From positions 65,110-129,109 of the forward strand of contig CASCZI010000004.1 in the NCBI GenBank assembly GCA_949156565.1: DNA of 64,000 nucleotides, in the 5' to 3' direction. The first letter of the stretch is position 1. Each line of letters opens with the position of its first letter. This DNA comes from an uncultured Alphaproteobacteria bacterium. Its GTDB lineage: Bacteria > Pseudomonadota > Alphaproteobacteria > Rs-D84. A program made the position numbers and the translations under genes. This document shows, one piece after another, positions 11,212 through 64,000 of this stretch. The notes under the pieces were generated by a model that was given only the letters and a program-made list of their open reading frames with translations, searched no databases and was not told where the DNA came from.

Positions 11212-11857
11212 TGAAAATAATTGTCCCGATGGGAATGATGCCTGCGGGTGCATAAATCCCAAAAATGCGCCCGGGAACAAAAGCAAGAAGAGCATATATA
11301 GTCACAAATACTATATTAAAAATCGGGATAAAATAAAAGCGGCGTCTGCCGCATACGCGGCCCAGAATAAAGAAAAAGTGAGTGCACGTCATCATGAATA
11401 TGCCATCAAGAACAAGGAACGTCTTGGTGAATATCAACGATCTTATTATATTAAAAATAAGGATAAGATAAAAGCGGCGGCGGTGGCGGCATATGCGGGC
11501 AAGAACAAAGAAAAACATCTGGAGATGATGCGTAAGAACAGACAACGTTATGCCGAACAAAATGCACGTGCGCGTGAAATGTGTCCGGCGTTTATGTTCC
11601 TTTTGCAATTACGGATGACGGATATACGGCTTTATCAGACACGGTACAAGATTCATGACAACATTGTGAATCGGGCCATCAAAAAATGCGCGGCATTGCA
11701 ATCTGGCGACGCCAATTTATGTCCATTGGTTGCAGGCGACATGAAAAACGACCATGTACGTCAACAATGTGTCATACCGCACGTCTTTGAATTCACCCGG
11801 GCTGTTGACCGAATTACATACTTTGCCGGGAAATTAAAAAAATCCATTGCGAAATAA
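11201..11857 (+). CDS. Lys-rich hypothetical protein with internal tandem repeats
   Basis: The 22-aa repeats KNRDKIKAASAAYAAQNKEKV and KNKDKIKAAAVAAYAGKNKEK are present. Its start overlaps the end of the LysM gene. Confidence 0.45.
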   Translation: MTINENNCPDGNDACGCINPKNAPGNKSKKSIYSHKYYIKNRDKIKAASAAYAAQNKEKVSARHHEYAIKNKERLGEYQRSYYIKNKDKIKAAAVAAYAGKNKEKHLEMMRKNRQRYAEQNARAREMCPAFMFLLQLRMTDIRLYQTRYKIHDNIVNRAIKKCAALQSGDANLCPLVAGDMKNDHVRQQCVIPHVFEFTRAVDRITYFAGKLKKSIAK

Positions 11858-21515: not shown

Positions 21516-22103
21516 GTGGTTGATATGACAGAAATTTTTAATCCGTTACCATCGCAAAAAGAAGCCGCCTTTGTCGAAGGTACACGTTTATTAAAACGCC
21601 AAATTTCTAAAATTTCATATCATCGCGTCATGTCGTTTGATGCCACAGAATACTTGGCACGTATTCGCATGGCATTTCGCAACGATGATATACGGACGCG
21701 CTTTTTTAATCGTGGTGCAAAAGAAACCCATGACATGCACCATTGGTCCGAAGGATTTTGCCAGGTTGCAAGTTATATTTGGTATCATGTGGATAGATTG
21801 CCAGATGGTCGCCCCGCATGGCGATTAAAACGGTTTGATAATTCCATTCGCGATAAAACAATTGACCCGGTTTATACGGGTGTTCATATGTGGCTGGAAA
21901 GTTGTCTTGATGGGTGGGGGAATGGCGAAATTTTGGATCTGACATTTGATCAATATGTTGATGAAATGCATCATCATGTGACAATCCCATATCACACCGG
22001 GATCATTGTTTCTGGGGATGGATATTGGGACAAGGCCGTGGAATTTGCCAATGCCATAGATATTGATTTAAAGAAAATTATTGATATTAACATGGGGCGA
22101 TAA
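21516..22103 (+). CDS. hypothetical protein, transglutaminase-like Cys/His/Asp pattern (paralog A)
   Basis: Carries the motifs GFCQVAS, HMWLE...GWGNGEILDLTFDQY and TIPYHTG. It is a paralog of the product of 22661-23125. Confidence 0.5.
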   Translation: MVDMTEIFNPLPSQKEAAFVEGTRLLKRQISKISYHRVMSFDATEYLARIRMAFRNDDIRTRFFNRGAKETHDMHHWSEGFCQVASYIWYHVDRLPDGRPAWRLKRFDNSIRDKTIDPVYTGVHMWLESCLDGWGNGEILDLTFDQYVDEMHHHVTIPYHTGIIVSGDGYWDKAVEFANAIDIDLKKIIDINMGR

Positions 22104-22110
22104 AAAACAG

Positions 22111-22653
22111 ATGGGTTTTAAAAATATACGAAAACAAAAATTAACCAAATTATTTTCCGGTGTTCCCGGTAATCGATTGGCCACACCACGTTTATTGAAT
22201 TGGTTGGATGCCAATGGTTTTTATACCCAGGTGGCATCAACCGGACATCATGGGGATTACCCGGGCGGCCTGTTTGACCACAGTTGGGATGTCACCCATA
22301 AGTTATTAGAAATGACCCATAAATTAAATCTGGTGTGGGAAAAACCAGACAGTCCGTATATCGTTGGAATGTTTCATGACGTGTGTAAAATTGATGAATA
22401 TGAAATAGAAATGGTTAATGGTCAATCAACCGTGATTAAAACCGAAAAATGCGGGGATGAACACGGCGCAAAATCGGTTAGATATTTATCCGAACTGATT
22501 CCATTGACCAACGAAGAAATTCTTTGTATTCGTTATCATATGGGCCCGTATATACGCCCAGATTGGGTTGGATATGATAATGCCATAAAACAATATGAAA
22601 ACGTCCTGTGGACCCATACCGCCGATATGTATGCAAGTCGCCTGATGCGATAG
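22111..22653 (+). CDS. HD-domain phosphohydrolase (small, about 180 aa)
   Basis: HD motifs STGHHGDYPGGLFDHS and MFHDVCK are present. Confidence 0.65.
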   Translation: MGFKNIRKQKLTKLFSGVPGNRLATPRLLNWLDANGFYTQVASTGHHGDYPGGLFDHSWDVTHKLLEMTHKLNLVWEKPDSPYIVGMFHDVCKIDEYEIEMVNGQSTVIKTEKCGDEHGAKSVRYLSELIPLTNEEILCIRYHMGPYIRPDWVGYDNAIKQYENVLWTHTADMYASRLMR

Positions 22654-22660
22654 AGAGATT

Positions 22661-23125
22661 ATGATTGATCATAAAAAATATTTTGATGCCGCGACATCCA
22701 AAATCTTGGATCAGGTTGATCGTTTGAATGGAACCTTAGATGCAATCCGTTATCGGCATGATATGATTATTTCATTACGCGACAGTATGATGGACCCGCA
22801 TATTCGCAGAAAAATGGTGCCGACGTTTCATCAAATGAATTTTTATCCGTCGCGCGGATTCTGTGAGATTGCAAGTCTTCTATGGCTTTATCATATGGGG
22901 GGCGCGTGGGATCTGATGCAAATACGCGGCACAGATTGGTCACACGGTCCACATTTTTATACGCGTCATCGTATATCGGGTCAGATCATAGACATAACCG
23001 TCGATCAATATTCGGTACGTCATATGACGGTCCCCTATCATTTGGGACAATGTGTTGAAATCGACCGCCGCCGTAAAAAATTATTGGATATGTATTTGGA
23101 ATGTCTTCATCTACAGAACAAATAA
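22661..23125 (+). CDS. hypothetical protein, transglutaminase-like pattern (paralog B)
   Basis: Carries GFCEIAS, H..H...IIDITVDQY and TVPYHLG, which align with paralog A. Confidence 0.5.
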   Translation: MIDHKKYFDAATSKILDQVDRLNGTLDAIRYRHDMIISLRDSMMDPHIRRKMVPTFHQMNFYPSRGFCEIASLLWLYHMGGAWDLMQIRGTDWSHGPHFYTRHRISGQIIDITVDQYSVRHMTVPYHLGQCVEIDRRRKKLLDMYLECLHLQNK

Positions 23126-23140
23126 TTGATAACTGATGAC

Positions 23141-24136
23141 CTATCGGCGATTCTCTTGGATATTCATATGGCCCATTGGATTGGTCAAGTTATTGACATT
23201 TATACCAATGGCTTTGGTGGCATCGGAAAATTTTTCAGAACGGACAATTTGCTGATACAGCTTATCAATTTCTAAGATAAATTCCGATATCATTTTTATA
23301 CGAATTGCGACCGCCACTTGGGGATTCTTTAGAAATTCCATGGCTGTCCATTTAAAGTTTTGTAATTTATTACGCATGTTTTCGACAAATTTATTTGATT
23401 CAATAATCACAGGGGTTGCCCGCCTTAATGCAAGGTATTCATGGCGTAATCTGTTTATGTCCAACCAACCTAATTTTGCAAAATCACGTTCAAACATATA
23501 ATGTGCATTTTCATATTTTGCGTCTGCGAAATCGATAAATGATACACGTCGGTTCACACTGTCATAAAAAATATTATTTTCATTCATGTCACCGTGTGAA
23601 AATACAAAATCAGCGTCATTTTCAGATGCCGCATCAAACCAAGTTCGTGCCATCTGAATAATTTTTATTTCATTGGGATTTAGATAGCGTTTCATTTGAT
23701 CTAAAACTGTATTAAATGAAACAGTGTTTATAGCCCCCGTATGAATATCAATATCAAATCCATCACGTTGCTTTATTATCGGGCGCATTTGATTCATGTC
23801 ATTTATAAAATGCGCCAATGCGTTATAAATAATATCCTGATCCTGGGGCGATAATGTTTCAAAGTACGATGTATTGATTGGATGACCATAAACGCGTGTT
23901 TCAATTGCAAATAATTTTTGGGTTGAAATTTCCCGCATTTGTGGAATGACATAGGCATTTGATTTAACATTTGCCAATTCATTCATTACGGTTTGGGCGT
24001 GTTTTTGTTTGGCAATCCACGCATTTGATGCAACCCCTGGGGCGGGCCGCTTAATCACAAGATCATCCGCATTATATACCAGTGTTTCACGTGGAACGTT
24101 TGTATTTATTTGTTGCAAATTGTCTGGATGGATCAT
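23141..24136 (-). CDS. aminoglycoside/choline-kinase-type phosphotransferase (APH family)
   Basis: Has the catalytic-loop motif HGDMNENNIFYD and the Mg-binding IDFADA motif. It is divergent from xseA. Confidence 0.65.
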   Translation of the reverse strand: MIHPDNLQQINTNVPRETLVYNADDLVIKRPAPGVASNAWIAKQKHAQTVMNELANVKSNAYVIPQMREISTQKLFAIETRVYGHPINTSYFETLSPQDQDIIYNALAHFINDMNQMRPIIKQRDGFDIDIHTGAINTVSFNTVLDQMKRYLNPNEIKIIQMARTWFDAASENDADFVFSHGDMNENNIFYDSVNRRVSFIDFADAKYENAHYMFERDFAKLGWLDINRLRHEYLALRRATPVIIESNKFVENMRNKLQNFKWTAMEFLKNPQVAVAIRIKMISEFILEIDKLYQQIVRSEKFSDATKAIGINVNNLTNPMGHMNIQENRR

Positions 24137-24172
24137 TATAATACCCTTTATAATAATTATAACAGAAAAACC

Positions 24173-25408
24173 ATGCAAAAACCAGAGCCATTTGTTCAAC
24201 CCGATACTGTTTTCAGTGTTTCTGACGCTGCCGCCCTGTTAAAGGGGGTGGTGGAAACCGCGTTTCCCCGCATTCGTGTGCGCGGTGAATTGTCACAAAT
24301 TACACGTGCATCTTCGGGCCATATTTATATGACCATCAAAGATGCCGGGGCGGCAATTTCCATGATTATATGGCGCGGCACGCCAATACCCTTTCGCCTG
24401 GACGATGGATTAGAGGTAATTGTCACCGGTCGTTTAACCACATACCCGGCACGCAGTAATTATCAGATTATCGCATCCGAAATTGAAATGGCCGGTGTGG
24501 GTGCGTTGTTAAAAATGCTGGAAGAACGCAAACAGAAATTGGCTGCCGAAGGGTTATTTGACGCGTCCCGGAAAAAGCCGTTACCCCATCTGCCGCGGCG
24601 GGTTGGCGTTGTAACCAGTCCAACCGGCGCCGCATTCCAAGATATTCAAAACCGATTGCGGGAACGGTTCCCGGTACACGTTATTTTGTATCCGGCCACG
24701 GTCCAGGGTGTCACCGCCGCGGTCGAAGTGGCGGCAGGCATCGAATATTTTAACCGTACAAAATGCGTTGATGTAATTATTGTGGCGCGTGGGGGTGGTT
24801 CACTGGAAGATTTGTTACCATTTTCCGAAGAAATCGTCGTGCGGGCCGCGGCGGCATCGGAAATTCCCCTGATATCGGGTGTGGGGCATGAACCGGATTG
24901 GATGCTGATTGATTTTGCGGCGGATTTTCGTGCGCCGACACCGACGGGTGCGGCCGAAACGGTTGTCCCGACAAAATTGGCATTAATCACAGAATTGGAT
25001 AATTTATGGCACCGGTTATCGGGACACTTTGCCACCCGTTTGACCGCCGCAACACAACGTTTGGCTGCCATTACGATAAAGAATCCCCGTCAATTTGTCA
25101 TGGAACAAGCCCAGCGTCTGGATGACGTTGGTCGCACGATATCGGTATTGATTACATCGCGTATGAATGCCGCCCGTGCCCAGATGACAACCGTGTCCAC
25201 GTTCCAAAACATTCTTCATAACCGTATGGCGGCCCGGACCCAGGCGATTGCCCACATGGACCAGATGTTGAATTCATTAAGTTATAAAAGTGTTTTGGCC
25301 CGCGGATATGCCATTGTACGTGATGCCGATCAAAATATCATCAGTCGCGCCGACAATGCACCCCGCCCTGCCACATTGGAATTTGCCGACGGGATTGTTC
25401 GGATCTAA
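24173..25408 (+). CDS. xseA: exodeoxyribonuclease VII large subunit
   Basis: Has an OB-fold N-terminus (RIRVRGELSQITRASSGHIYMTIKD) and an ExoVII catalytic core. Confidence 0.9.
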   Translation: MQKPEPFVQPDTVFSVSDAAALLKGVVETAFPRIRVRGELSQITRASSGHIYMTIKDAGAAISMIIWRGTPIPFRLDDGLEVIVTGRLTTYPARSNYQIIASEIEMAGVGALLKMLEERKQKLAAEGLFDASRKKPLPHLPRRVGVVTSPTGAAFQDIQNRLRERFPVHVILYPATVQGVTAAVEVAAGIEYFNRTKCVDVIIVARGGGSLEDLLPFSEEIVVRAAAASEIPLISGVGHEPDWMLIDFAADFRAPTPTGAAETVVPTKLALITELDNLWHRLSGHFATRLTAATQRLAAITIKNPRQFVMEQAQRLDDVGRTISVLITSRMNAARAQMTTVSTFQNILHNRMAARTQAIAHMDQMLNSLSYKSVLARGYAIVRDADQNIISRADNAPRPATLEFADGIVRI

Positions 25409-39588: not shown

Positions 39589-40158
39589 TCATTTTGTTTT
39601 TGAGCCAATAAGTGAAGATGTATCTTTTATAATTCTTGATAGCGCGTCGTTATCTATTTTTGCATTAATTTTTTCTCCAGTTCCTGCAATATAAATCGTT
39701 TTAAGTTTTTTAATATTTTTATAATTTTCTATGTCGCTAACAATTTCTGCCAAGAAATTTTCGTATGAAATCAAAATAATTGATCGGGTTTCTCCTTGAT
39801 TTAAAGTTATTGGATTTTTATATAAATCCGTATCATACGGTAGTATCAGCAGTCTAGTTTTGTCTTTACGTTTAAAGTCAAAATAAAAACTAGTACTTTG
39901 TAAAATTAACGGACGGCTACCTTTGTTTTTGATACATAGTGTAACGAGCTCATTTCCCATCAATCGTTCAGATTTAACAAGATATGATTTATCGCCCCCT
40001 ATTAATTTCATAATGGAAACACTTGCTACAGCTTTTAGTCTATTTTGCCTTGTCGAAACAAATAAAGAAACTATTACAGCGCTGCAAGTGCCTATTGCAA
40101 CTAGAAGCTGGATAATGAGTTCTATAAAATCTTTATACGATATAATGAAGTTATACAT
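39589..40158 (-). CDS. hypothetical protein (low-GC island)
   Basis: A 189-aa AT-rich ORF with an N-terminal TM helix. Confidence 0.4.
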   Translation of the reverse strand: MYNFIISYKDFIELIIQLLVAIGTCSAVIVSLFVSTRQNRLKAVASVSIMKLIGGDKSYLVKSERLMGNELVTLCIKNKGSRPLILQSTSFYFDFKRKDKTRLLILPYDTDLYKNPITLNQGETRSIILISYENFLAEIVSDIENYKNIKKLKTIYIAGTGEKINAKIDNDALSRIIKDTSSLIGSKTK

Positions 40159-40319
40159 AATGCCCTTCTATATAATTAAACTGTATTATAGTTTGTTGCA
40201 TATGGGTTTCAATGATAAAATTGCTTGCAATAGTTATTCAGATAATGTATAATCATTTCCGTATTTGGCGTAGCGAGCCATAGGCGAACGATAGCAAGTT
40301 TGCTAAAAATTCCCCTTAA

Positions 40320-40409
40320 AATCGTTATTCGGAGCGTTGCCAGAGTGGTAATGGAGCGGATTGCTAATCCGTCATGGGGTTAAACTCATGCATAGGTTCG
40401 AGTCCTATA
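40320..40409 (+). tRNA. tRNA-Ser (anticodon GCT), type II with a long variable arm
   Basis: Acceptor GGAGCGT/ACGCTCC, anticodon loop TTGCTAA, T-loop TTCGAGT and an encoded CCA. Confidence 0.9.
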
Positions 40410-40417
40410 CGCTCCGC

Positions 40418-40441
40418 CAGATTTTAAAAAGCCCTTGTTTG
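40418..40441. terminator. bidirectional terminator after tRNA-Ser
   Basis: The sequence aaaagcccttgtttgggcttttttat. Confidence 0.6.
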
Positions 40442-40448
40442 GGCTTTT

Positions 40449-40979
40449 TTATATTGAATAAAGCAGTTCTGGAATAACGCCAGTCATCAGTATTGTCCCC
40501 CAACATTTAAGCCAACCAATAACAAAATATTGTGTGCCACTTTGAGCTAAACCAGATCTAGTAAAATATAGTTTAATGGCTTCGGGTTGAAGTCGACCAC
40601 GAAAAAATATACATTTATTCGGATTGGCATCAAATTGTGTTGTCCCACTCCAACGCGTTAATTTTGTACCAGAGATTTCTTTTGCACCAAGATATATAAA
40701 TAATCCAAAAAGTAATGTGGCAATTTTGTATGTATGTTGGCCAAAGAAAACAAAGCCCAGAGCAATAAATGTTATAATTGCCAAATTAGATGTGATGCGA
40801 TCCAAATATTGGATTTTTGATCGTGCGGCATTATCTCTGGCAAGATAGAATCTTTTAAATAAAAGAAGCATAACAAACAGGACTGAGGACAAAAGACCAA
40901 TTATAAATAAAGCTGTTTTCATTAGAAAATCCTTTTTTGAATATATACTTATTTTTATTTGCTTTTCAAGAAACGTCAT
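40449..40979 (-). CDS. hypothetical multi-pass membrane protein (low-GC island)
   Basis: Four or five hydrophobic helices in an AT-rich ORF. Confidence 0.45.
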   Translation of the reverse strand: MTFLEKQIKISIYSKKDFLMKTALFIIGLLSSVLFVMLLLFKRFYLARDNAARSKIQYLDRITSNLAIITFIALGFVFFGQHTYKIATLLFGLFIYLGAKEISGTKLTRWSGTTQFDANPNKCIFFRGRLQPEAIKLYFTRSGLAQSGTQYFVIGWLKCWGTILMTGVIPELLYSI

Positions 40980-41200
40980 TGTAAAATAATTTTGAATCCA
41001 ATGGGAATTGGGTTCGGGGCTGTGGTAGCCCGTATATCCGGTACGTAGGTGTCGTAATCCAAAGATTCACACTTATTGTATCGTCAAAATATCCCCCGAC
41101 TTCGTGCCGGGGAGCTGTCAGTTATAAAATACGGCTTATCCGGAAGGCTGGCGGAATCAATGATATACTGATTACCAACTCCCCGACCGTCAAATTCTCG

Positions 41201-41527
41201 TTGACGGTCTTACTTTTTGCAAAGGTGAATTTAAAAAAAATGGACATATTGGCGATTGTAATAGTTATAGTTGCATATTTTTTAGAGTCGGCTTTTTGGA
41301 TGGGGATTTTATGCTTTGTTCTAATTCTTGCTCTTGGATATGTTTTAGAAAACCGAAAGTGCGGCGACGAGTACGATGAGTGTAATTTGTCAAAAAAATG
41401 GCAACGGAACATACTGTGTGTCATATTAATAATCGGCGTGTGTATCTCGAGTTTTATTGCCTCTCATAACGCAAAAAAGAATCGTATTGCGGAAATTAAA
41501 GAAGTCTGTTCCATGGTTAAATATTAA
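41201..41527 (+). CDS. hypothetical small membrane protein
   Basis: Two TM helices in an AT-rich ORF. Confidence 0.35.
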   Translation: MTVLLFAKVNLKKMDILAIVIVIVAYFLESAFWMGILCFVLILALGYVLENRKCGDEYDECNLSKKWQRNILCVILIIGVCISSFIASHNAKKNRIAEIKEVCSMVKY

Positions 41528-41583
41528 AATAATGAAAGAAAAACTAAAAACACATGGTTCAGAAGAAACTATAGAATGATGAG

Positions 41584-42132
41584 GTGACGGACATGAAATG
41601 GATACAGAATATTTTTACAAAATATAACTATATGCCACCTGAATGGGAATTCGCATCGGGTGTTAAGACAACCGCAATAAACACGTATATTTTAACCATT
41701 TTATTGATTATAACCGCTGGCTGGGGAATAGGATTTGGTATTTTTTGTTGCATGTTGCTTATTGATTATATCGGTATATTAATTAATCGATACAGGTACG
41801 CAAAAATTGAAAATGAGTTTAAAAATTACATTATGTCAGGGTTAACACCTTGTTTGGTGTACGCAAAAAGTGACCCACTAGGTATAATGTATACACTTGT
41901 TGTTGATGATAAATTATCGACTGTTTTTGCTGACTTGGATGCAGAGCCAGCCTTTTGGCCCATTGTTATATTCCTGTCAGAACAGGTAAAAACAGATTTA
42001 AAGAAAAAGCATTGGGATACGCCAACAAAAGTTAATAAATTCTATAAAGATAAAATTGTTCGGCTGCCGTCTTGTAAGCCAACAGATAAAAATCTTGCTG
42101 TAATAAAGGCTGTTTTAAAATATCCGTCTTGA
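41584..42132 (+). CDS. hypothetical membrane protein
   Basis: Two N-terminal TM helices. The ORF overlaps the integrase fragment on the opposite strand. Confidence 0.35.
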   Translation: MTDMKWIQNIFTKYNYMPPEWEFASGVKTTAINTYILTILLIITAGWGIGFGIFCCMLLIDYIGILINRYRYAKIENEFKNYIMSGLTPCLVYAKSDPLGIMYTLVVDDKLSTVFADLDAEPAFWPIVIFLSEQVKTDLKKKHWDTPTKVNKFYKDKIVRLPSCKPTDKNLAVIKAVLKYPS

Positions 42133-49418: not shown

Positions 49419-49507
49419 TGGCGGAGACGGAGGGATTTGAACCCCCGATACGGTTGCCCGTATACACGATTTCGAGTCGCGCGCATTCAACCACTCTGCC
49501 ACGTCTC
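49419..49507 (-). tRNA. tRNA-Ser (anticodon CGA), type II
   Basis: The reverse complement reads GGAGACGTGGCAGAGTGGTTGAATGC...CTCGAAA...GGTTCAAATCCCTCCGTCTCCGCCA, with a long variable arm and an encoded CCA. Confidence 0.9.
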
Positions 49508-49677
49508 CACGGATGGGCATTATACAGGTTTTGTTTCTTTTTGCAAGGGGTTTGTATTTTAATTGATTTTGATGCCAAATTATGCTATAATATCATTAAA
49601 ATTCATGACGGCCCATCGGGCCGTCTTTTTTCATGACCACCCCACCCGGGGTGTTTTTTTATCAAAGGAATACAACC

Positions 49678-50835
49678 ATGTCCAAATTACCTGAATTTTT
49701 ATTGAAATTAATGCATTCTGACGCCTATATGAATCAATTACATCCAAATTATCAAGATGTAAATCAGCGTGTCAGCCGGTATATGCAAATGCTATTTCCG
49801 GGCAAAATGACATATGATTCTGCCGGACGATTATCCGAACCAGAATACGATATGACACTAGAACAATTTAATCAGGCCCAACAACAAATTGATGCGGATT
49901 TCGAAGATGAAAAGCAAGAGAAAGAACAAGAAGTTTGGGATGAATATGAAGAAACTTTTGAAATAATGGGTTATGAATTTGATATAGAAAATTTCATCTT
50001 TCCCGGCGAACAAATCTCCAAACGCGTTCTGTATCCCGACGGCATGATTATAACAAAATATCTGGAAACACAAATTGTAGACGTTCCCGAATTTAAAAAA
50101 CTGATGCGCGTGTGGATATGGCATGCCGAAAATGGACCAAATATGTGTGATGAATGTGGTGTACGTGATGGCGCAGTCTTTTTTGATGTCGCAGACATTC
50201 CATCGATACCGGTTCATCCCAACTGTCGATGCCGCATCACCGAAGATATTATCAACCAAGACGGAAAAATTATTCAGAGTAAAAAGTATGAACCCAAAGG
50301 GAAATCAATGAACGATATAAATTTTGATAAAGCATATGCGAATTTAAAGGAACGCGAAGGCGGTTATACCGATGGAAAAAATCAGGTTAATGACGAACCA
50401 ACTAATATGGGGATTAAACAAAGCACATTAAATAAATATGCACAAAAACACCCCGAAAAAAACTTCCCAGTTGATGTGAAAGACTTGAAACCAGAACAAG
50501 CCCGGGAAATATACAAGGAGAATTACTGGGACAACACAAAAATACCACAAATTGAAAATGAACGGATCCGCAATGCGGTTTTTGATATGAATGTAATGGG
50601 TGGTGTTGCCGCCGCTAATGTTCTTCAAAATACATTAAATTCATACTTAGGTGCAGGAATAAACGTGGATAGCGTTATTGGCAGCATAACAATCAATACG
50701 ATCAATTCTATTTCTAAAAATCAAGTAAATGAATTTATGACTGCGCTAAAACAAAACAGAATAGAATCTTTACAGAAAATGCCAAACTGGCCAACGGCAA
50801 AAGGAGGCTGGACCAAGCGAACAAATGCGTATTAA
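49678..50835 (+). CDS. two-domain protein with an N-terminal phage MuF/SPP1-gp7-like domain (HPNCRC motif) and a C-terminal GH108 lysozyme-like plus peptidoglycan-binding (PG_binding_3) domain
   Basis: MuF-like PVHPNCRCRI motif around residue 210. The GH108 segment is REGGYTDGKNQVNDEPTNMGIKQSTLNKYA...IYKENYWD...AVFDMNVMGGVAAANVLQNTL. The PG-binding tail is GGWTKRTN. An SD (aagga) is present and GC is low. Confidence 0.7.
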   Translation: MSKLPEFLLKLMHSDAYMNQLHPNYQDVNQRVSRYMQMLFPGKMTYDSAGRLSEPEYDMTLEQFNQAQQQIDADFEDEKQEKEQEVWDEYEETFEIMGYEFDIENFIFPGEQISKRVLYPDGMIITKYLETQIVDVPEFKKLMRVWIWHAENGPNMCDECGVRDGAVFFDVADIPSIPVHPNCRCRITEDIINQDGKIIQSKKYEPKGKSMNDINFDKAYANLKEREGGYTDGKNQVNDEPTNMGIKQSTLNKYAQKHPEKNFPVDVKDLKPEQAREIYKENYWDNTKIPQIENERIRNAVFDMNVMGGVAAANVLQNTLNSYLGAGINVDSVIGSITINTINSISKNQVNEFMTALKQNRIESLQKMPNWPTAKGGWTKRTNAY

Positions 50836-50837
50836 AA

Positions 50838-50874
50838 ATAGCCCATACCGGTTTTCTGGTATGGGCATTTTTAA
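50838..50874. terminator. bidirectional terminator
   Basis: The hairpin gcccataccggttttctggtatgggc followed by TTTTT. Confidence 0.6.
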
Positions 50875-51227
50875 TTATCAATAAATTCTGGAACACCTAT
50901 TATTTCGCCGCATTTGACCAAAATTCCGACATTTCGACCATCTATATAGGCATACGCCAGGTCGATAGGATCATCATTTATATATATTTCATAATAAAAT
51001 TGTGCATCTTTTGAGCCTTGGATTTTTTTATACCCCAATTTTTCAATGGATTTTTCTGTGGGTATAGAATCATCACACAAAGGGCAATAATCAATATAAA
51101 CATCTGTATTTTTAAACAAATCATATGCGCGTAAAAAAGTTTCATAATCCAAATAGCCACATTGGTCCGCATGAGCAGGATTAAGATTTAACAATATTAC
51201 AAATATAGAGAAAAACTTTTTTATCAT
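50871..51227 (-). CDS. small secreted hypothetical protein (signal peptide)
   Basis: The N-terminus MIKKFFSIFVILLNLNPAHA is signal-peptide-like. Product is 118 aa, AT-rich. Confidence 0.5.
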   Translation of the reverse strand: MIKKFFSIFVILLNLNPAHADQCGYLDYETFLRAYDLFKNTDVYIDYCPLCDDSIPTEKSIEKLGYKKIQGSKDAQFYYEIYINDDPIDLAYAYIDGRNVGILVKCGEIIGVPEFIDN

Positions 51228-51854
51228 CTTACCATTCCATATCTACATATGATGCCAGGCATAGGGATTAAACGGGGATTGCGTTAATAATTCCCAAGAA
51301 CTCTTTGCCGCATCAAATTGTGCATAAGCCCTATCCAAGGAAATAATTGTGCTGCAATAGGAATAGCATGCATCAGGTCGTGAAATAAAACCGACCATAT
51401 CCCCTAAATTGATAAAATTTTCATTCATCGCATTGGCCTTTTGCGTGTAATCCCGATCAATAATTTTATAGATTATTCATGAAATAAATTATACGAAATT
51501 CCCATAAATCAATCAATAAAAAAATTCCCATCCCATATATCTAGGCAATGTATAAATAATATCTTAATATAAATTGTCCGGCAAAACGGTGAAGCAATAT
51601 ATTATTTCTATTAACAAAAAAAGCATGTATTCAGGCTGATTCAAATTTAATTTATGATTATCAAAAATACTTAATAAATCACGGGGTGTAAATTCTATAC
51701 CTATGACATGTTATATGTACCGTTATGAAACATATATAAATTTCCCCCTCCACTGCCATCATAATCCATGGGTCCATTTAATAGAATTAAGATTAATCTT
51801 TGGACATATGAACATTTTATGCTAGGGTTGTGATGTAATTCAATGGGGGAAATA

Positions 51855-52346
51855 ATGCGATATAAACCTAGATTTATTATTTGTTTTGGATTTTGCTTTG
51901 TTTTCCCCAACCTATGTATGGCAAAAGATAACTTGTTTTTACAAGAAAACAAATGGGAATCATGTAACTATTATGATGACAGCCGCAAAGAAATCGTTGA
52001 TGAAGGCTGCGAACAGGGAAAAATAAAGATTTCCAGTTGTGATGATAACTTGTGCTTTTTTCAAATAACAATGGAACACGGGAAACCGTTTCATTCGGCA
52101 TGTACCATGTGGGGTAAATTGCATATTGATAATGATAAACATGCATTCGGTCTTGCCATCGCAGAATATCGGCGGCGCGGTATGGACCGTCGCGAATTTG
52201 AAGATTGTGAATTAAATTTTGACATTACCGACAATCTTATGAACATATCGATCAAATCCGGATGTGACAAATGGTGCCGCCCCGATGAATTTGAATTTAA
52301 CAACACGTATCATATTGATAATACAGGTGGCGCCATTACAATGTAG
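51855..52346 (+). CDS. secreted Cys-rich hypothetical protein
   Basis: A signal-peptide-like N-terminus and about 12 Cys. AT-rich. Confidence 0.45.
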   Translation: MRYKPRFIICFGFCFVFPNLCMAKDNLFLQENKWESCNYYDDSRKEIVDEGCEQGKIKISSCDDNLCFFQITMEHGKPFHSACTMWGKLHIDNDKHAFGLAIAEYRRRGMDRREFEDCELNFDITDNLMNISIKSGCDKWCRPDEFEFNNTYHIDNTGGAITM

Positions 52347-52363
52347 CCAGATATAATTGGTGA

Positions 52364-53179
52364 TTAATATAGATCATCGTTGTAAATTAACTTGCCATGC
52401 TCGGACAAAATTACTTTTTTATTCGGGCCAATAACCTTTAATTCGGTATGAAAAATATCACCATTAACACCCATTTCCAAGATATTTTCAATAATATATT
52501 TATACTTTCCATTGTTAAAAACATATTCATTCATAGGATCTATCATTCCACCTATTGAATTATTGACGCCGTTATAAAGCACCAAATCTGGTGTATCTGT
52601 TGTTTGTTTCCCGGATGACCATGATATGTATCTGTATTTTCCATCAACGACATCAATGCGAACTAAAAATTTTTTCGTCTGAATAATTTGCACAACACGG
52701 GAAAAATTATGCAATTCATCTGGCATTGCAAATCCATCAAATGCATTGGCTTGTTTATCTGATTCTGATTTCGAAAGGATCAGATTAATAAGATTTCCAG
52801 ATAAATCCATATCAACAAAACTGGCGATCATTGCCCGCTTTAACATCAATGTATCTTCTATGGATTTATACCATCCGATTTTACCGTACGTGGGATCATA
52901 AAAATCACTGGTTGGATTAACGGATAAAATTAATTCTTTTTGTTCGGAATCAAATATATCACCGTACCGCGCGATAAATTCAGACGGATTGTTAACGGGT
53001 TTTAATGGATATGCTCGGCGCAATGGATACTTGATATATTTAGCCAGCGTTTCCGCGTCATCGTGACGAATTAAATCTTGAAATTGTTGAATATGTTCTA
53101 TGTATGTTTTATCGGATACTTTGGCCCAACAATACGGTACATAAGTGAATAACATCAGAAATAAAATAATTGATTTCAT
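52364..53179 (-). CDS. secreted hypothetical protein
   Basis: Signal peptide MKSIILFLMLFTYVPYCWA. AT-rich. Confidence 0.5.
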   Translation of the reverse strand: MKSIILFLMLFTYVPYCWAKVSDKTYIEHIQQFQDLIRHDDAETLAKYIKYPLRRAYPLKPVNNPSEFIARYGDIFDSEQKELILSVNPTSDFYDPTYGKIGWYKSIEDTLMLKRAMIASFVDMDLSGNLINLILSKSESDKQANAFDGFAMPDELHNFSRVVQIIQTKKFLVRIDVVDGKYRYISWSSGKQTTDTPDLVLYNGVNNSIGGMIDPMNEYVFNNGKYKYIIENILEMGVNGDIFHTELKVIGPNKKVILSEHGKLIYNDDLY

Positions 53180-53726
53180 AGAATGAATTATACGATTATA
53201 ATCTTGGATCAATCAATAAAAAAATATCACGGACCATGACCTTTGTCACAATCAAATAAATGGTACCACACATACATCATAATGCGGCAACACATTGTGA
53301 ATTAAACACGGAAAACTGATTCCCATTTATACACAAAATTATCCCCATTGGGGATTTTAAGATTTCTTTGGTGTGTTTTTATTTTTGGCCGACCGCGGTT
53401 TGCATTTATTAGCGTTTTTGTCGGCAATGGATAACGCGATCGCGATGGCCTGTTTGTGTGGACGGCCCGCGCGGGTTTCGGTGCGAATGTTTTCGGAAAT
53501 GGCACGACGGGAACATCCCTTTATCAATGGCACGATTCAATCCTTTGGTTCGCCCTATTCTATCACAACATATGAACCCAAACCATAGGGATAAATTTCT
53601 AGATATTTAGGCATAAACAAAAGGAAATCCAGTGATGCGGGGCACATCATCAAAAATCAATGTCACATCGTCAATATTTAGGTCGGCCAAATATCCCCAC
53701 AAAGAGTTATATTTATCCAATTAAAA

Positions 53727-54872
53727 TTAAACGTCAAAGTTATAGCCCTTGACAGATTTGACAATGGCGTTCACCAATTTATTTTGGTGTGCATCGGATG
53801 ATAATAATTTTTCTTCGGCGGCATTGGATAAATGCCCCAATTCCAATAATGCCCCCGGCACCGTCGACCGCAGAACTGCAAACGGCGCATGACGCACGCC
53901 GGGACCCGGTTGTTGGGTAATACTGGCACTACGGAAAGACTTGCTGCACCCGGTGGCGTATTCTTCACTCATTTCGGCAACCGCATGTTGTTGCAAGGAC
54001 GACAACGCAATTCGAATATCTTTGGAAAATTGTTCAAATCCATCAACATCAATTTTATCGGCGGCATTTTCTGCCTCGGCCAGTTTGCGCGCCTCTTCAT
54101 CCGACGCTTTTTCCGAAAGCGTGTAAATCGAAAATCCCTTAACTGAACGACTTGGGTTTGCATTCGCATGCAGGGATAAAAACAAATCCGCCTTGCGCCG
54201 TTCGGCAATGGCCGCGCGTTCACCCAATTTTAAATACACATCCGTACTGCGCGTTAAATATGTTTTAAATCCGGCCGCATCCAGCTTATTTTTCAATTTC
54301 TTGGCCACCGCCAAAACAACCGTCTTTTCACGTGTCCCCGCCTTGCCGATGCAACCCGGATCTTTGCCCCCATGACCGGCATCAATCACAATAATGCGTT
54401 TTTGTGACGTAACCTTGGCCGGGGTGGTATCGGCGGCAATGCTGATGGGGGTGCCGGCGGCAAAATCCAATACCAAACGGTAATCATTGTCCCCGTTGGG
54501 TTCCAATACCATAATTTGATTTTTGGGGATTTGCCCAATGTTTTTGGTCAAATTTGCGGTAATTTGTAATCGATCGCCCATTTGCACCTGACTTACCGAT
54601 TTTACCAATGATCCATCGGCCAATTTGGCCCGTATGGATTGATTGGCCGGTGTGTTGGCCAAACTAACGACCAATTGATTTTGCGGGTATGATAATGTAT
54701 ATGACGGACGCGCCACCGTTTCAATAACCAAACGACTTTTATTCCCAGGTTGTACACCCGTACGCATCGATTTTAGTGCATTACGTGCCGCGAACGCCAC
54801 CCGGGGCAGATTCCCCATCAGCAACACCCCAATTCCGGTGATTTTCAAAAGACTGCGTCTGGATATTTGCAT
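53727..54872 (-). CDS. amiC: N-acetylmuramoyl-L-alanine amidase (AmiC-like) with a Tat signal
   Basis: Twin-arginine signal SRRSLLKITGIGVLL, an AMIN-like N-domain and an Amidase_3 catalytic domain (IVIDAGHGGKDPG...SLHANA). Confidence 0.85.
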   Translation of the reverse strand: MQISRRSLLKITGIGVLLMGNLPRVAFAARNALKSMRTGVQPGNKSRLVIETVARPSYTLSYPQNQLVVSLANTPANQSIRAKLADGSLVKSVSQVQMGDRLQITANLTKNIGQIPKNQIMVLEPNGDNDYRLVLDFAAGTPISIAADTTPAKVTSQKRIIVIDAGHGGKDPGCIGKAGTREKTVVLAVAKKLKNKLDAAGFKTYLTRSTDVYLKLGERAAIAERRKADLFLSLHANANPSRSVKGFSIYTLSEKASDEEARKLAEAENAADKIDVDGFEQFSKDIRIALSSLQQHAVAEMSEEYATGCSKSFRSASITQQPGPGVRHAPFAVLRSTVPGALLELGHLSNAAEEKLLSSDAHQNKLVNAIVKSVKGYNFDV

Positions 54873-54944
54873 GGTAAAAGTATATCAAAAAAACATTCTT
54901 GGTGCAAGGAAACAATACGGGGCATATATGTGCCCCGTTATTCA

Positions 54945-55820
54945 TTATCCGTAATATGATCGCACCTTTTGCCGCATTTTTGACGTTGGCAAAAATATCG
55001 CCACGATGCGCGCCAATGGGTACATAATACGACGTGTAAACCATGTGTTGGGCATCTTGCGATCGGTTTTGCCACGCAACCATGCAATGCCACCATACTT
55101 TGGACTATTCTTATGCCGAGAAATGATTTTTACCATGGGCATGCCAATGGATGGAATTTGTTTCAATTTTCCTTCGGGGAAACCATACGCCCGCCCACAG
55201 AGTAAATATTTCTTTCCCATCATATAGGCATTCAAATGACTCTCGTCATCAACACAGGCAACAATATTATGATCTAAATCTGTTTGAACATTCGTTGCCA
55301 ACGTCCGACACATTTTCAAATAGGCATCGGCCGTCCCCCCATTAAATGCCCCACACACATAATGCCGCCCCATCCCAAAGGGAATATAGGCGGTTGATTC
55401 CGGCCGCCGTTCATACGGATAGGAATCAATTTCCCCATCACGTGTATCACCCCAGCGCCCAGGATGCGATCCGGCAACCAACCCATCATGCCATTCACGT
55501 GGTGTAATTTCCGCCAAATCAACAGGTGCAATAAATTGCATATTGGCATTAAAGAAATAAATATAATCAAATTTTTTCAATTCTTTTTCGCGTTCTAAAA
55601 ACATATGAAAACGCAATAACGTATCATACGGCCATCCGCGACGCTGGGCCGGAATAACCGTTACGTTGGGATTATCACAATAATCAAATTGGTCATTGTC
55701 GGTCCAGACAAAATAATGTTTTTCACATGGTCCCAAATACCGTTCGCATGATTCATAAAAATCGCGCCAGAAAATGATATAACGCCCCAGGGCAATGTAT
55801 AAAATGGCAACTTTTGGCAT
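54945..55820 (-). CDS. glycosyltransferase family 6 (histo-blood-group A/B transferase-like)
   Basis: GT6 motifs ILYIALGRYIIFWRDFY, GWPYDTLLRFH, FFNANMQF (bacterial NxN in place of DxD), YERRPESTAYIP, VDDESHLNAY and KYGG. Confidence 0.8.
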   Translation of the reverse strand: MPKVAILYIALGRYIIFWRDFYESCERYLGPCEKHYFVWTDNDQFDYCDNPNVTVIPAQRRGWPYDTLLRFHMFLEREKELKKFDYIYFFNANMQFIAPVDLAEITPREWHDGLVAGSHPGRWGDTRDGEIDSYPYERRPESTAYIPFGMGRHYVCGAFNGGTADAYLKMCRTLATNVQTDLDHNIVACVDDESHLNAYMMGKKYLLCGRAYGFPEGKLKQIPSIGMPMVKIISRHKNSPKYGGIAWLRGKTDRKMPNTWFTRRIMYPLARIVAIFLPTSKMRQKVRSYYG

Positions 55821-55894
55821 TGTTTATATCCTTGATTCTACATTGGGAATTATACCCATTCGCGCGATTTTTTACAAGGGGAAAATTGGGAACA

Positions 55895-56130
55895 ACGAAC
55901 AGGTTCACCGCCCCCGTTGGAATCTTTGAAAAAAGACCACCCCGACCCCGGGCCCCGCGAAAATTGTTAAATTTCCATAGGTGGGTTCTGGCGGGGGAAC
56001 TTTTCTTTGTTCTTTGCGTGGGTGGATTCCAGGATGGGGAACTTATATCCAGGTTGGTTCGGCCCAGGTTCACCGCCCCCAGAGGGGTGCCACGAAGTGG
56101 CGGGGTGGTCTTTTGTCCGAACTCTGAACA
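55895..56130. repeat. cluster of dispersed intergenic repeats (MITE/REP-like)
   Basis: Internal direct repeat aggttcaccgccccc at 55901 and 56066. Blocks aaaaaagaccacccc, ttccataggtgggttctggcgggggaactt and ggtggtcttttgtccgaactctgaacact are shared with 58.63-58.96 kb and 8.34-8.50 kb. Confidence 0.5.
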
Positions 56131-56132
56131 CT

Positions 56133-56157
56133 AAAAAAATCCCGCCGGGGGCGGGAT
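56133..56157 (-). terminator. intrinsic terminator of the 56161-57381 gene
   Basis: On the minus strand the hairpin atcccgcccccggcgggat is followed by a T7 run, then agtgttcagagttcgg. Confidence 0.65.
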
Positions 56158-56160
56158 ATT

Positions 56161-57381
56161 TTACTTGCTAATACAATTGGCAAACGATTGCGCCACCAGG
56201 GATGTTTCTTTGTCCGTCATTTGGGCAACCGGAACAATATAACACCGGGCACTGTCGCGAACAATAAATACTTTGGTCCCTAATTTATATGCATTTTGCA
56301 TGGCATCAATCTGGGCCGATGTTAAAAATGCGTTCTGGGTGGTGGACACATTTGACAGGGCCGCCGACACCAATTGCTTTGCACTGGCATAATTATAGAG
56401 TTCCGACATGCTGGTGACATCTTGCCACACAGACCAATTTTCATACGGGTTTTCCACCGTTCTGGGTTCGGTTCCCGGGAACGCTGTTCCAATGACCAAT
56501 GCGGCCGCCGTCTGTAACGTTGTGGGCGTTGACCCATTCGATGATGCGTAATTGGCCGTGTTTATTTGCATATCATCACCACAGGCCAAATTCATACGAT
56601 TGGTATAGCTGGCCAAAACAGCATCGACCGATGATTGCCAACCACTGCCTTTTTCATTCAGGTTAAGGTTTACGATCTGTTCCGCCCAGCCCCAAACATT
56701 CGCCCCAATATTCCCGGCATTGGAAAAACGGCTGACCATTTCTGCACTGCCCCCTGGGACACCGGCGCCACACGCATCGGTTAATTGGGTACGCAACATG
56801 CTGGACGTTTCATTACCATATGCCAACGCCACCGAATGGCATGCCATGGCCGCCTCCAGCTCTTGACGGCGTGCCAAACACAGATCAGAATGCGACTTGC
56901 TTAGTTGGGTGGCCATGTTTGCCATTGACAGATACGACATCAATTCTTGTTGAACATACGGGGGGCATAAACGGGCCGCCGTATTCATTCCCCCGGTATT
57001 ATTCTTGGTGTTTACGCCATATTGCGGTAACAACACACTGTTATCTTTCTGCAAACAGAGTAAAGCATAGTTATACAATTCACTTTCCGTGGCATAGGTG
57101 CATCGACCCGATCGTTGCCCCGGAACAACCGTCACATCACCACAATAATCAGATAAACATTTGTAAATTTTTTCCCGACATGCCCCATCGACATCCGGTT
57201 GGGTCACCATGAAATAATTATTGCGTTGATTATTGCGATATGCGGTGGCATTTCCTTGGTATCCACGATTGTTTGTCGCAGGTGTCACGCCCGCGCGTGC
57301 CGTTGTATCTGTGGCACCAAACACCGGCCCCGCCCCCAGGCAGATCCCCACAATTCCCAATGCAAATGCAATGCTTTTCAT
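56161..57381 (-). CDS. secreted Cys-containing hypothetical protein
   Basis: Signal peptide MKSIAFALGIVGICLGAGPVFGA, about 14 Cys, rich in Asn/Ser/Thr/Ala. Confidence 0.55.
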   Translation of the reverse strand: MKSIAFALGIVGICLGAGPVFGATDTTARAGVTPATNNRGYQGNATAYRNNQRNNYFMVTQPDVDGACREKIYKCLSDYCGDVTVVPGQRSGRCTYATESELYNYALLCLQKDNSVLLPQYGVNTKNNTGGMNTAARLCPPYVQQELMSYLSMANMATQLSKSHSDLCLARRQELEAAMACHSVALAYGNETSSMLRTQLTDACGAGVPGGSAEMVSRFSNAGNIGANVWGWAEQIVNLNLNEKGSGWQSSVDAVLASYTNRMNLACGDDMQINTANYASSNGSTPTTLQTAAALVIGTAFPGTEPRTVENPYENWSVWQDVTSMSELYNYASAKQLVSAALSNVSTTQNAFLTSAQIDAMQNAYKLGTKVFIVRDSARCYIVPVAQMTDKETSLVAQSFANCISK

Positions 57382-57479
57382 GATATTCCCCCCATCTCTT
57401 ACCACGTAATATTATCATATTGGCATTCAAAAGGCAATCATTCATTTAAAGATTGATTTAATAAAATCTTGCTGGTAAC

Positions 57480-58560
57480 ATGTCAAACACAATGATTATG
57501 TTAAATGAAATTTTGAATCAAATTCGCGACGACATTTCCGCCGTCAGGGGGTTTCTTTGACCCGGAAAAATTAAAATCTGAAATTGATGCATTAACCGAT
57601 CAAACAAATGATCCCCAATTATGGGATAATCCAGATGCCGCGCGTGTCATTTTACAGAAAAAATCTAATCTGGAAAAATCATATAATGAATTAATGTCAT
57701 TGGATGCAGAATATCAAAATCTGTGCGAACTGTATGACATGGCACCCGATGACCCAGATGTGGCAACGGCAATAACGGCATTGGCCGATGCCGCCCATCA
57801 CGCAAAATTCATCACCCTGTTCCGTGAACCTGCCGATAATAATGGTGCCTTTTTATTTATTCAGGCCGGCGCCGGCGGGACCGAGGCCCAAGATTGGGCC
57901 CAAATGTTATCCCGCATGTATGCCCGTTGGGCCGAACGGCATGGTTTCGGGATAGAGGTGATCGAAGAACACCCCGGTGATACCGCCGGCATAAAAAATA
58001 TCACCTATCGCATTTCTGGGGATCGGGCATACGGATGGTTAAAAAACGAAATTGGTGTTCATCGTTTGGTACGCATTTCCCCGTTTAATGCCAATGGGAA
58101 ACGCCAGACCAGCTTTGCGTCAATCGACGTATGGCCAGATATTGATGACACGATCGAGATTGAGATTAACGACAAAGATCTGCGGATTGATACATATCGG
58201 TCATCGGGTGCCGGTGGTCAACACGTTAATAAAACCGACAGTGCGGTGCGTATCACCCACATGCCAACAAATACCGTTGTCACATGCCAAAATGAACGCA
58301 GTCAGATTCAAAACAAAGAAATGGCGATGAAAATGCTTCGCAGTAAATTGTATGAACTTGAAATGCAAAAGCGCGCGGCCGAGGCCGACGCCGCCAAAGC
58401 CGCCCAGAAAAAAATCGAATGGGGCAGCCAGATCCGTAATTACGTCCTTTACCCTTATCAATTGGTTAAAGATGTTCGAACCGGCGTGGAAAAAACGGAT
58501 TCCGCCGCGGTCTTGGACGGCGATCTGGATGATTTTATGTTGGCGTTATTACAGCGATAG
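57480..58560 (+). CDS. prfB: peptide chain release factor 2, produced by a programmed +1 frameshift (frame 0 at 57480-57557, then the +1 frame from 57559)
   Basis: ORF0 MSNTMIMLNEILNQIRDDISAVRGFL stops at TGA 57558-57560 within AGGGGGTTTCTTTGAC. The +1 frame continues DPEKLKSEIDAL... to the RF2 body with SPF and GGQ motifs. Confidence 0.9.
57545..57561 (+). promoter_or_regulatory. prfB autoregulatory +1 frameshift site (internal SD AGGGGG, slippery CTT, TGA C)
   Basis: AGGGGG TTT CTT TGA C is a near-exact match to the canonical E. coli prfB shift site. Confidence 0.85.
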
Positions 58561-63636: not shown

Positions 63637-64000
63637 ATGACAAATACACCCGATCTTTTTATTCAGGCAGAACATGCCGATTTAATCAAAAAATTAAATG
63701 AATGGGACATTGCATACCATCAAAACGATGCACCCATTGTCGACGATGCCACATATGACGCGGCAAAAAAACGCGCCATGGAGATAGAGGGGCAATTTCC
63801 ACAACTGGCCCGGGGGGGCGCGTCGACACATGTAGGTGCCGCGGTTTCGGAAAAATTTAAATCATATCCCCACCATGTGCCCATGCTGTCGATTGCCGAT
63901 GTTTTTGATGAACACGATGTGGCCGATTGGTTTAACAAATTGACCGATCGGGACTTATTTATTGAATTAAAGGTGGACGGCGTATCCTATGCCGCACGAT
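63637..64000 (+). CDS. ligA: NAD-dependent DNA ligase LigA (3'-partial; it runs off the window)
   Basis: N-terminal Ia domain LIKKLNEWDIAYHQNDAPIVDDATYDAAKKR, then the PMLS motif and ELKVDG (adenylation Lys motif KxDG). Confidence 0.85.
   Translation, partial: MTNTPDLFIQAEHADLIKKLNEWDIAYHQNDAPIVDDATYDAAKKRAMEIEGQFPQLARGGASTHVGAAVSEKFKSYPHHVPMLSIADVFDEHDVADWFNKLTDRDLFIELKVDGVSYAAR

Follow-up and report, generated by a model that had tools for sequence, protein, structure and literature searches.

Does the 64-kb stretch of DNA analysed here (the window), from an uncultured alphaproteobacterium, encode a genuine member of glycosyltransferase family 6 (GT6), and does the product cap the cell surface with glycans that imitate those of an animal host? 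The preliminary description of this locus had answered both parts in the affirmative, reading the gene as a rare bacterial GT6 and its position next to the peptidoglycan amidase gene amiC as a sign of surface glycan mimicry; as a whole, that interpretation is partly supported by the analysis presented here. The gene and its translation start are as follows.

54945..55820, minus strand: GT6 glycosyltransferase coding sequence, 291 amino acids plus stop codon, an uninterrupted ORF with an ATG start
8 nt upstream of the GT6 ATG: ribosome-binding site AAGGA, from reading of the sequence

The ORF at 54945-55820 is confirmed as an intact GT6 glycosyltransferase and a relative of the ABO blood-group transferases. 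It matched the Pfam profile Glyco_transf_6 (PF03414) at E=2.3e-20 (73.1 bits, cutoff 25), and the NCBIfam profile NF041524 'family 6 glucosyltransferase' (Gltr_6) with 249.7 bits against a curated cutoff of 250 (E=2.5e-74), the latter match being full-length (residues 3-220 on profile positions 2-215 of 226). Because this second score lies 0.3 bit under the cutoff, relatives of the protein carry the public names 'glycosyltransferase' or 'hypothetical protein'. A search of PDB sequences gave E=6e-49 for BoGT6a of Bacteroides ovatus and values close to 1e-17 for about 55 entries of human ABO transferases. Chance does not account for matches of this strength. An AlphaFold2 (AF2) model built with 72 homologues as input reached a mean pLDDT of 94.3 and a pTM of 0.89, and its best Foldseek matches were BoGT6a chains (4cj8_E, target-normalised TM 0.91, rmsd 2.0 Å), followed in the ranking by GTA, GTB and alpha3GT, with all of the top 50 matches belonging to GT6. 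Save for the 0.3-bit shortfall on NF041524, every sequence and structure feature of GT6, and of its bacterial branch with an NxN motif and a basic-hydrophobic-basic (BHB) tail, was found. The family claim of the preliminary description therefore stands: the profiles matched are those of GT6 and both H119 and the catalytic E193 are kept, so that neither of the two observations named as speaking against it, a different family or a lost acceptor His/Glu, was made.

Residue roles were assigned by alignment to BoGT6a (PDB 4AYJ/4AYL/4CJ8), a metal-independent alpha-1,3-GalNAc transferase to which the GT6 ORF is 38% identical, with the roles themselves taken from the crystal-structure papers (PMC3516806, PMC3961637). 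Three elements define the active site.

55542..55550, minus strand: N91-A92-N93, an NxN motif standing in for the metal-binding DxD (BoGT6a N95-A96-N97)
55347..55355, minus strand: C156-G157-A158, the donor-specificity triplet (GTA L266-G267-G268, BoGT6a A155-G156-G157)
55224..55253, minus strand: V190-D191-D192-E193-SHLNAY, the catalytic loop, residues 190-199, by alignment to BoGT6a

The two motifs quoted beforehand are both present, FFNANMQF at residues 89-96 (55533-55556) and ESHLNAY at residues 193-199, and the reading of NxN as a substitute for the eukaryotic DxD is upheld by the alignment. N91 and N93 are invariant across the 72 homologues, and with the role of BoGT6a Asn95 as a guide (PMC3516806), the product is predicted from the NxN motif alone to be metal independent. 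The catalytic glutamate, E193, corresponds to E192 of BoGT6a, E303 of GTA and E317 of alpha3GT; it is invariant in the subfamily alignment (A1) and nearly invariant (at least 90%) in the 72 homologues. Retained with it are Y14 (Y13 in BoGT6a), W63 (W66), T67 (T70), R70 (R73), D192 (D191), K237 (K231), R249 (R243) and Y154 (Y153), the last also counted among the kept acceptor contacts, and this set includes the BoGT6a donor contacts Y13, R73, D191, K231 and R243. With human GTA/GTB and bovine alpha3GT the product has in common the GT-A fold (TM about 0.65-0.70), the blocks HPG, Y-x-x-G-x and DES(H)LN(K)Y and, presumably, retaining alpha-1,3 chemistry; unlike the human ABO enzymes (~25% identity), it has no N-terminal transmembrane segment or stem, carries NxN where they have the Mn2+-binding DVD, and has V/D in place of W300/H301.

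Beyond the catalytic domain, the protein shares with BoGT6a a C-terminal tail.

54948..55070, minus strand: BHB membrane-association tail, residues 251-291, from composition and AF2 helices

Ten Lys/Arg residues against one Asp/Glu surround the hydrophobic core of this tail (IMYPLARIVAIFLP), AF2 placed helices at residues 260-275 and 280-287, and by alignment the whole segment lies past the end of the crystallised BoGT6a construct. A BHB domain is known for bacterial GT6 and was cut from BoGT6a for crystallisation (PMC3516806).

Taken as one joint reading, we hold it highly probable that the product is a functional glycosyltransferase, retaining and metal independent, from the bacterial NxN/BHB branch of CAZy family GT6, that it acts on a surface glycan and would work like BoGT6a, and that it belongs to a subfamily of gut-associated Alphaproteobacteria with an old link to termite-gut Bacteroidota. 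We propose that the BHB tail would anchor the enzyme at the cytoplasmic face of the inner membrane, where, by homology to BoGT6a, a UDP-hexose would be bound via Y14, R70, N91, D192, K237 and R249, and E193 would serve transfer of the sugar in an alpha linkage, probably alpha-1,3. The donor would be UDP-GalNAc and/or UDP-Gal, selected via CGA, and the acceptor a beta-Gal/GalNAc-type residue of a lipid-linked glycan, possibly an LPS/LOS outer core or an O-antigen/capsule unit. Judged by this analogy, alpha-linked galactose or GalNAc is most likely what is added to the surface glycan. What the data show directly is the family, the fold, the motifs, their conservation, purifying selection and the genomic contexts; the donor, the acceptor, the linkage, the membrane topology and the target glycan are inferred.

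The product departs from BoGT6a in several respects: the donor triplet is CGA rather than AGG, the catalytic loop is VDDE rather than WHDE, F125, T134 and W218 give way to R, P and K, its host is alphaproteobacterial, and it is encoded by a stand-alone gene whereas that of BoGT6a lies in a polysaccharide locus. V190 and D191 occupy the place where Trp-His is usual in the GT6 loop (WHDE), the roles of BoGT6a W189, H190, D191 and E192 having been described (PMC3516806, PMC3961637). Of the 120 closest homologues, 86 have the VDDE loop and 83 combine it with CGA. Across 145 diverse GT6 representatives, WHDE was found in 94 and V/Y/F-HDE in 27, so that loss of the Trp is ordinary for bacterial GT6; the motif counts listed for these 145 contain no xDDE loop, in which Asp takes the place of His. 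CGA is invariant in the subfamily alignment and differs from LGG of GTA and MGA of GTB as well as from AGG. A 2014 survey of 56 bacterial GT6 recorded the triplets AGG, CGG, MGS, QGC, MGG, QGG and TGA and no CGA, so the CGA/VDDE signature is absent from that set (PMC5377540); MGS and QGC are the B-type motifs reported to date from bacteria, and AYVYGS is found in the A gene of H. mustelae, all of which differ from CGA (PMC5377540). At the level of sequence, the combination of VDDE and CGA marks the subfamily with an active-site signature of its own.

The donor can be approached through the mutagenesis of human A transferase, in which all 20 residues at codon 266 were measured with Gly or Ala at 268 (PMC5377540). 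In that table, which was obtained on a human, not a bacterial, backbone and which failed for the H. mustelae motif, CGA scored ++++ for A and +++ for B activity (PMC5377540). Because CGA is dual there, we infer UDP-GalNAc and/or UDP-Gal as the donor. A Gal-only donor, considered from the third-position Ala by analogy with GTB and alpha3GT, was dropped, CGA being dual in the same table. As for the triplet itself, CGA predicts dual specificity rather than A-only or B-only specificity. In structural work, an Ala at position 268 of GTA stood in the way of the productive GalNAc conformation, and GTA His301 was able to hydrogen bond to O6 of the donor galactose. The replacements of H190 by D and of W189 by V in the donor/acceptor loop could alter the choice of sugar or of linkage beyond what homology can foresee.

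Would such a cap be a blood-group epitope? Genuine mimicry, in which GalNAc and/or Gal is placed onto a surface Fuc-alpha1,2-Gal (H-type) acceptor to yield A, B or cis-AB-like determinants, is the best-surviving alternative, and we judge it unlikely. It draws on the CGA triplet, which the code table scores for both A and B, on the animal hosts of the subfamily, and on the characterised bacterial GT6 (BoGT6a, WbnI, BgtA and PaGT6), all of which use Fuc-alpha1,2-Gal acceptors. Three positions tied to the 2'-fucose are moreover permissive: H119 (H122 in BoGT6a), G121 (G124) and the small S234 at position 'A7' (I228 in BoGT6a, Ala in GTA/B) are kept, and it is the H122, G124 and I228 positions of BoGT6a that are linked to room for this fucose (PMC3516806). 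G121, however, is variable inside the subfamily, and four acceptor contacts of BoGT6a have been replaced, F125 by R122, T134 by P135, W189 by V190 and W218 by K218, among them Trp189, which in every GT6 of solved structure stacks against the acceptor (PMC3516806). Without this Trp/Phe/Trp platform, the acceptor probably binds differently from the H antigen in the ABO enzymes and BoGT6a; the acceptor platform is one defining feature of an A/B synthase, and on alignment it was looked for here and appears to be lost.

Evidence on the supply of a fucosylated acceptor argues against mimicry as well. A six-frame search for the GT11-type alpha1,2-fucosyltransferase motif HxRRxD recovered no ORF in the 64-kb window and a single locus (L031) among 40 related loci, and the GDP-fucose genes gmd and fcl were not seen in the annotated genomic contexts of this locus and its relatives. 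The O-antigen loci that contain the genes for WbnI of E. coli O86 (B) and BgtA of Helicobacter mustelae (A) also encode an alpha1,2-fucosyltransferase, whereas no fucosyltransferase motif was found in the 64 kb around the GT6 ORF. Compared by description, both enzymes are likewise proteobacterial NxN GT6 of O-antigen/LPS, and the fucosyltransferase of E. coli O86 is WbwK. With four acceptor contacts not conserved, no fucosyltransferase in the window and a triplet of dual activity, the earlier claim of A/B or alpha-Gal mimicry proves to be an extrapolation: on sequence grounds such mimicry is possible but unsupported, and the epitope made is best described as an undefined alpha-Gal/GalNAc cap.

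A bolder proposal, about which we are doubtful, is that the VDDE/CGA subfamily constitutes a distinct GT6 specificity class, with dual Gal/GalNAc transfer, a non-H (non-fucosylated, possibly LOS-core) acceptor and a terminal alpha-Gal/alpha-GalNAc epitope at the surface. Natural anti-glycan antibodies are believed to be primed by A, B and alpha-Gal-like glycans, for which bacterial GT6 have been put forward as the microbial origin; if the bolder proposal were true, the widespread, uncultured gut Alphaproteobacteria of mammals/birds would be an unrecognised source of antigens for natural anti-A, anti-B and anti-alpha-Gal antibodies. The subfamily offers an easily expressed candidate for asking whether the specificity of commensal GT6 exceeds H-antigen acceptors, and bacterial GT6 are also handy as metal-independent catalysts in glycan synthesis. 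The enzyme class is already known; the subfamily is an uncharacterised one with a distinctive active-site signature.

That the BoGT6a-like transferase acts on a surface glycan draws on the neighbourhoods of its orthologues. Among more divergent carriers, the orthologue at one locus (L041) adjoins an LPS inner/outer-core set of GT9 heptosyltransferase, GT8, GT32, acyltransferase, HldE and GmhA genes; at another (L042) it is accompanied by GT32, two GT2 and GT8, and on two Bacteroidales contigs (L043/L044) by Wzy, GT2, GT4, GT61 and GT32. When genes within 7 kb were clustered, the recurrent neighbours were GT2 (15 loci), a GT2_4 protein (10) and RgpF (5). These glycan-cluster contexts and recurrent GT2, GT2_4 and RgpF partners support a role in the assembly of LPS/LOS or another surface polysaccharide. 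The window itself is otherwise of a housekeeping nature (dnaK, pfk, gdh, rpsP, trmD, tsaD, xseA, uvrD, rpoD, cysS, accAD, ahpC, mutY, prfB and RNase E/G); the only other envelope-glycan-related gene in the 64 kb encodes an LPG_synthase_TM protein, the GT6 ORF lies outside any glycan cluster, and a GT92 gene is situated just beyond the window edge.

The gene next to GT6, at 53727-54872, does encode an Amidase_3/AmiC-type protein, as had been noted, and the following signals surround the GT6 gene.

55849..55877, minus strand: promoter-like TTGTAA-17-TATAAT upstream of GT6, from a consensus scan (10/12; pattern match only)
54917..54938, minus strand: terminator-like hairpin between the GT6 stop codon and amiC, from a hairpin scan
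56139-56157: terminator-like hairpin after the gene upstream of GT6, from a hairpin scan

A promoter-like site of its own and terminator-like hairpins on both sides suggest that GT6 is a monocistronic unit. In Enterousia-like relatives (prfB 88-90% identical), GT6 is usually found near amiC, the gene for a conserved, secreted 414-aa protein and prfB, and gene order and orientation around it vary from genome to genome, being tandem in some and divergent in others; one locus (L007) has extra genes between GT6 and amiC, and two others (L005 and L012) have no amiC beside GT6. Since orientation and neighbours shift among close relatives, adjacency to amiC is no evidence of function, and the functional weight once placed on it does not survive the separate promoter-like and terminator-like signals and the changing neighbours. 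A GT6-amiC operon was rejected in view of the intervening terminator-like hairpin and the variable arrangement. AmiC works in the periplasm, and a nucleotide-sugar glycosyltransferase with a BHB tail works in the cytoplasm. A functional link to amiC, by which the enzyme would act on a peptidoglycan-associated or cell-division target and not on LPS or capsule, can point to 12 related loci with housekeeping synteny in which amiC lies within ~3 kb of GT6, and is nevertheless very improbable given the separate signals, the rearrangements and insertions among relatives, the general knowledge that places the two proteins in different compartments, and the location of distant orthologues in LPS or O-antigen clusters. 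The spacer at 55900-56157, with a GC-rich repeat and an inverted repeat, was considered as a riboswitch, sRNA or invertible promoter and found no support as any of these: no Rfam model came near its gathering score, the fold z-score was -0.66, and related loci lack the repeat.

Nothing suggests that GT6 is either a pseudogene or a fresh island. Compared with its closest relative (locus L038, 78% amino acid identity), the gene has a dN/dS of ~0.12, in keeping with purifying selection, and the flanking amiC, 414-aa protein and prfB genes have values of 0.04-0.07, all rough since dS is saturated. Its GC content is 43.5% and its GC3 41%, most neighbours having a GC3 of ~50% and uvrD one of 42%, and its codon usage falls inside the housekeeping range. 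No close copy on mobile elements was found, the best matches being 37% identical among IMG/VR viral contigs, 44.5% among GenBank phages and 38.7% among PLSDB plasmids. That the gene is a recently acquired or decaying transfer, functionless in this genome, is scarcely credible: its solitary position amid housekeeping genes, its lower GC3 relative to most neighbours, its shifting position among relatives and the spread of the subfamily across two phyla could be read that way, but the ORF is intact with every catalytic residue conserved, the approximate dN/dS is low, orthologues run throughout the Enterousia-like group with close relatives clustering in the gene tree, codon usage is housekeeping-like (the GC3 of uvrD is similar), and the phage and plasmid matches are distant. 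The surface-glycan enzyme would instead be a vertically maintained stand-alone gene of Enterousia-type gut Alphaproteobacteria.

An identical protein is present on contig CATIZI010000055.1 of the metagenome-assembled genome (MAG) GCA_949738905.1 and on several metagenome contigs. A protein search returned 146 homologues, the top ~90 of which share 54-81% identity over their full length, and a scan of one genome per GTDB species yielded 36 loci at 55-78% identity, nearly all labelled 'Alphaproteobacteria bacterium' or 'Candidatus Enterousia sp.', the latter a genus of Alphaproteobacteria incertae sedis. The carriers' isolate names refer to goat colon, horse faeces and the caecum of roe deer and yak, and Hadza or UMGS tags appear in the names of some carrier MAGs. 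The goat, deer, yak and horse gut relatives bear out the preliminary description in its view of the organism as a likely host-associated alphaproteobacterium, and a whole lineage of uncultured gut Alphaproteobacteria, including the Hadza- and UMGS-labelled MAGs, keeps a conserved GT6.

Five more loci are labelled Bacteroidales, Bacteroidia or Paludibacter, and one Rickettsiales-labelled locus groups with them. On one of the Bacteroidales contigs (L044), the purA gene adjoining GT6 has named relatives that are all Bacteroidales/Bacteroidota, at 63-90% identity; because these confirm the Bacteroidota label, the subfamily spans two phyla. In a neighbour-joining tree with 100 bootstraps, the subfamily was monophyletic in 100/100 replicates inside the bacterial NxN GT6 clade, with a Bacteroidota-labelled, termite-gut group basal within it and human GTA as a long-branch outgroup at ~25% identity. 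This nesting, with GTA as outgroup, argues against recent acquisition from a eukaryotic host, a form of the transfer that a phylogeny including metazoan GT6 had been suggested to examine, and the spread across phyla suggests that the gene passed between bacteria of gut ecosystems long ago. Recent horizontal transfer from a eukaryote or via a mobile element was likewise rejected, given the bacterial NxN nesting, the lack of a strong compositional anomaly and the absence of close copies on the elements searched.

As a genome feature the gene is ordinary, belonging to a known, Pfam-recognisable family, and a GT6 in a gut proteobacterium would be no surprise to specialists. When 1.84 billion cluster representatives were searched exhaustively with HMMER, with clusters formed at 50% identity, GT6 was represented by 2221 clusters at E<=1e-3, of which 1375 passed E<=1e-10; the subfamily alone occurs in at least 36 species-representative genomes. 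The GT6 family is small, yet it is less rare than had been assumed.

Several further features lie in the window or just past its end:

22000-24000, low-GC stretch (GC 38%) that includes an APH/choline-kinase-like gene at 23141-24199
40000-42000, low-GC stretch (GC 35%) adjoining tRNA-Ser(gct) at 40331-40419
49419-53212, low-GC island (GC 31-38% versus about 46%) adjoining tRNA-Ser(cga)
49633-50835, within this island, protein of 400 aa that carries Phage_Mu_F-like and GH108 lysozyme domains
55900-56157, GC-rich spacer upstream of GT6 with direct and inverted repeats
56161-57405, minus strand, Cys-rich protein of 414 aa with an apparent signal peptide
57481-58560, plus strand, prfB (release factor 2) with a programmed +1 frameshift of classical type
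L001 (the GT6 locus of this genome) 1-126, just past window position 64000, Glyco_transf_92 gene adjoining ligA

The spacer upstream of GT6 carries a 16-nt direct repeat, with copies at 55900-55915 and 56065-56080, as well as inverted repeats of 17-20 nt. Comparison with Rfam returned no family close to its gathering score, the fold z-score was -0.66, and the repeat was found in this genome only. We propose that the spacer is probably a strain-specific insertion. Beyond it, the 414-aa Cys-rich protein belongs to no family in Pfam or NCBIfam and is conserved at 67-81%; in those related loci that yielded both, its gene directly adjoins prfB, and in the window the two are divergently transcribed. 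The ATG of prfB is at 57481, with the main ORF listed from 57694 and the frameshift site AGGGGG-TTT-CTT-TGA-C around 57544-57560. Programmed +1 frameshifting in prfB is a known feature, and its presence here is an indicator of good assembly.

In the island by tRNA-Ser(cga), the gene of the 400-aa protein is followed by small, secreted-looking ORFs with no match in Pfam, and the island is absent or just partial in the closest relatives (loci L038 and L011). It may be what is left of a prophage, or else a toxin/effector cassette. Several ORFs of the 40000-42000 stretch likewise had no match in Pfam. Around GT6 in this genome, the sole further glycosyltransferase observed was the Glyco_transf_92 gene, ~10 kb away.

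Outside these genomes, Synechococcus phages B23 and B3 (matches H4/H5) carry a GT6 match, a distant relative at 33% identity. The cyanophage match (MN695335.1, around 222238-222882) overlaps features annotated as 'hypothetical protein' and 'glycosyltransferase family 11'. GT11 adjoining GT6 is the combination expected for an A/B-type structure built after the H antigen; no instance of it was seen for the VDDE/CGA subfamily studied here. Another GT6-bearing contig, L019 (CAVGNU010000006.1), was deposited as 'Bacteroides fragilis ... cleanbin'. Its GT6 groups tightly with copies from two Hadza alphaproteobacterial MAGs (L018 and L020), and the bin label is probably wrong. Finally, an APH-family ORF unrelated to the gene at 23141-24199 repeatedly adjoins GT6, in five related genomes (e.g., 10917-11726 of locus L007).
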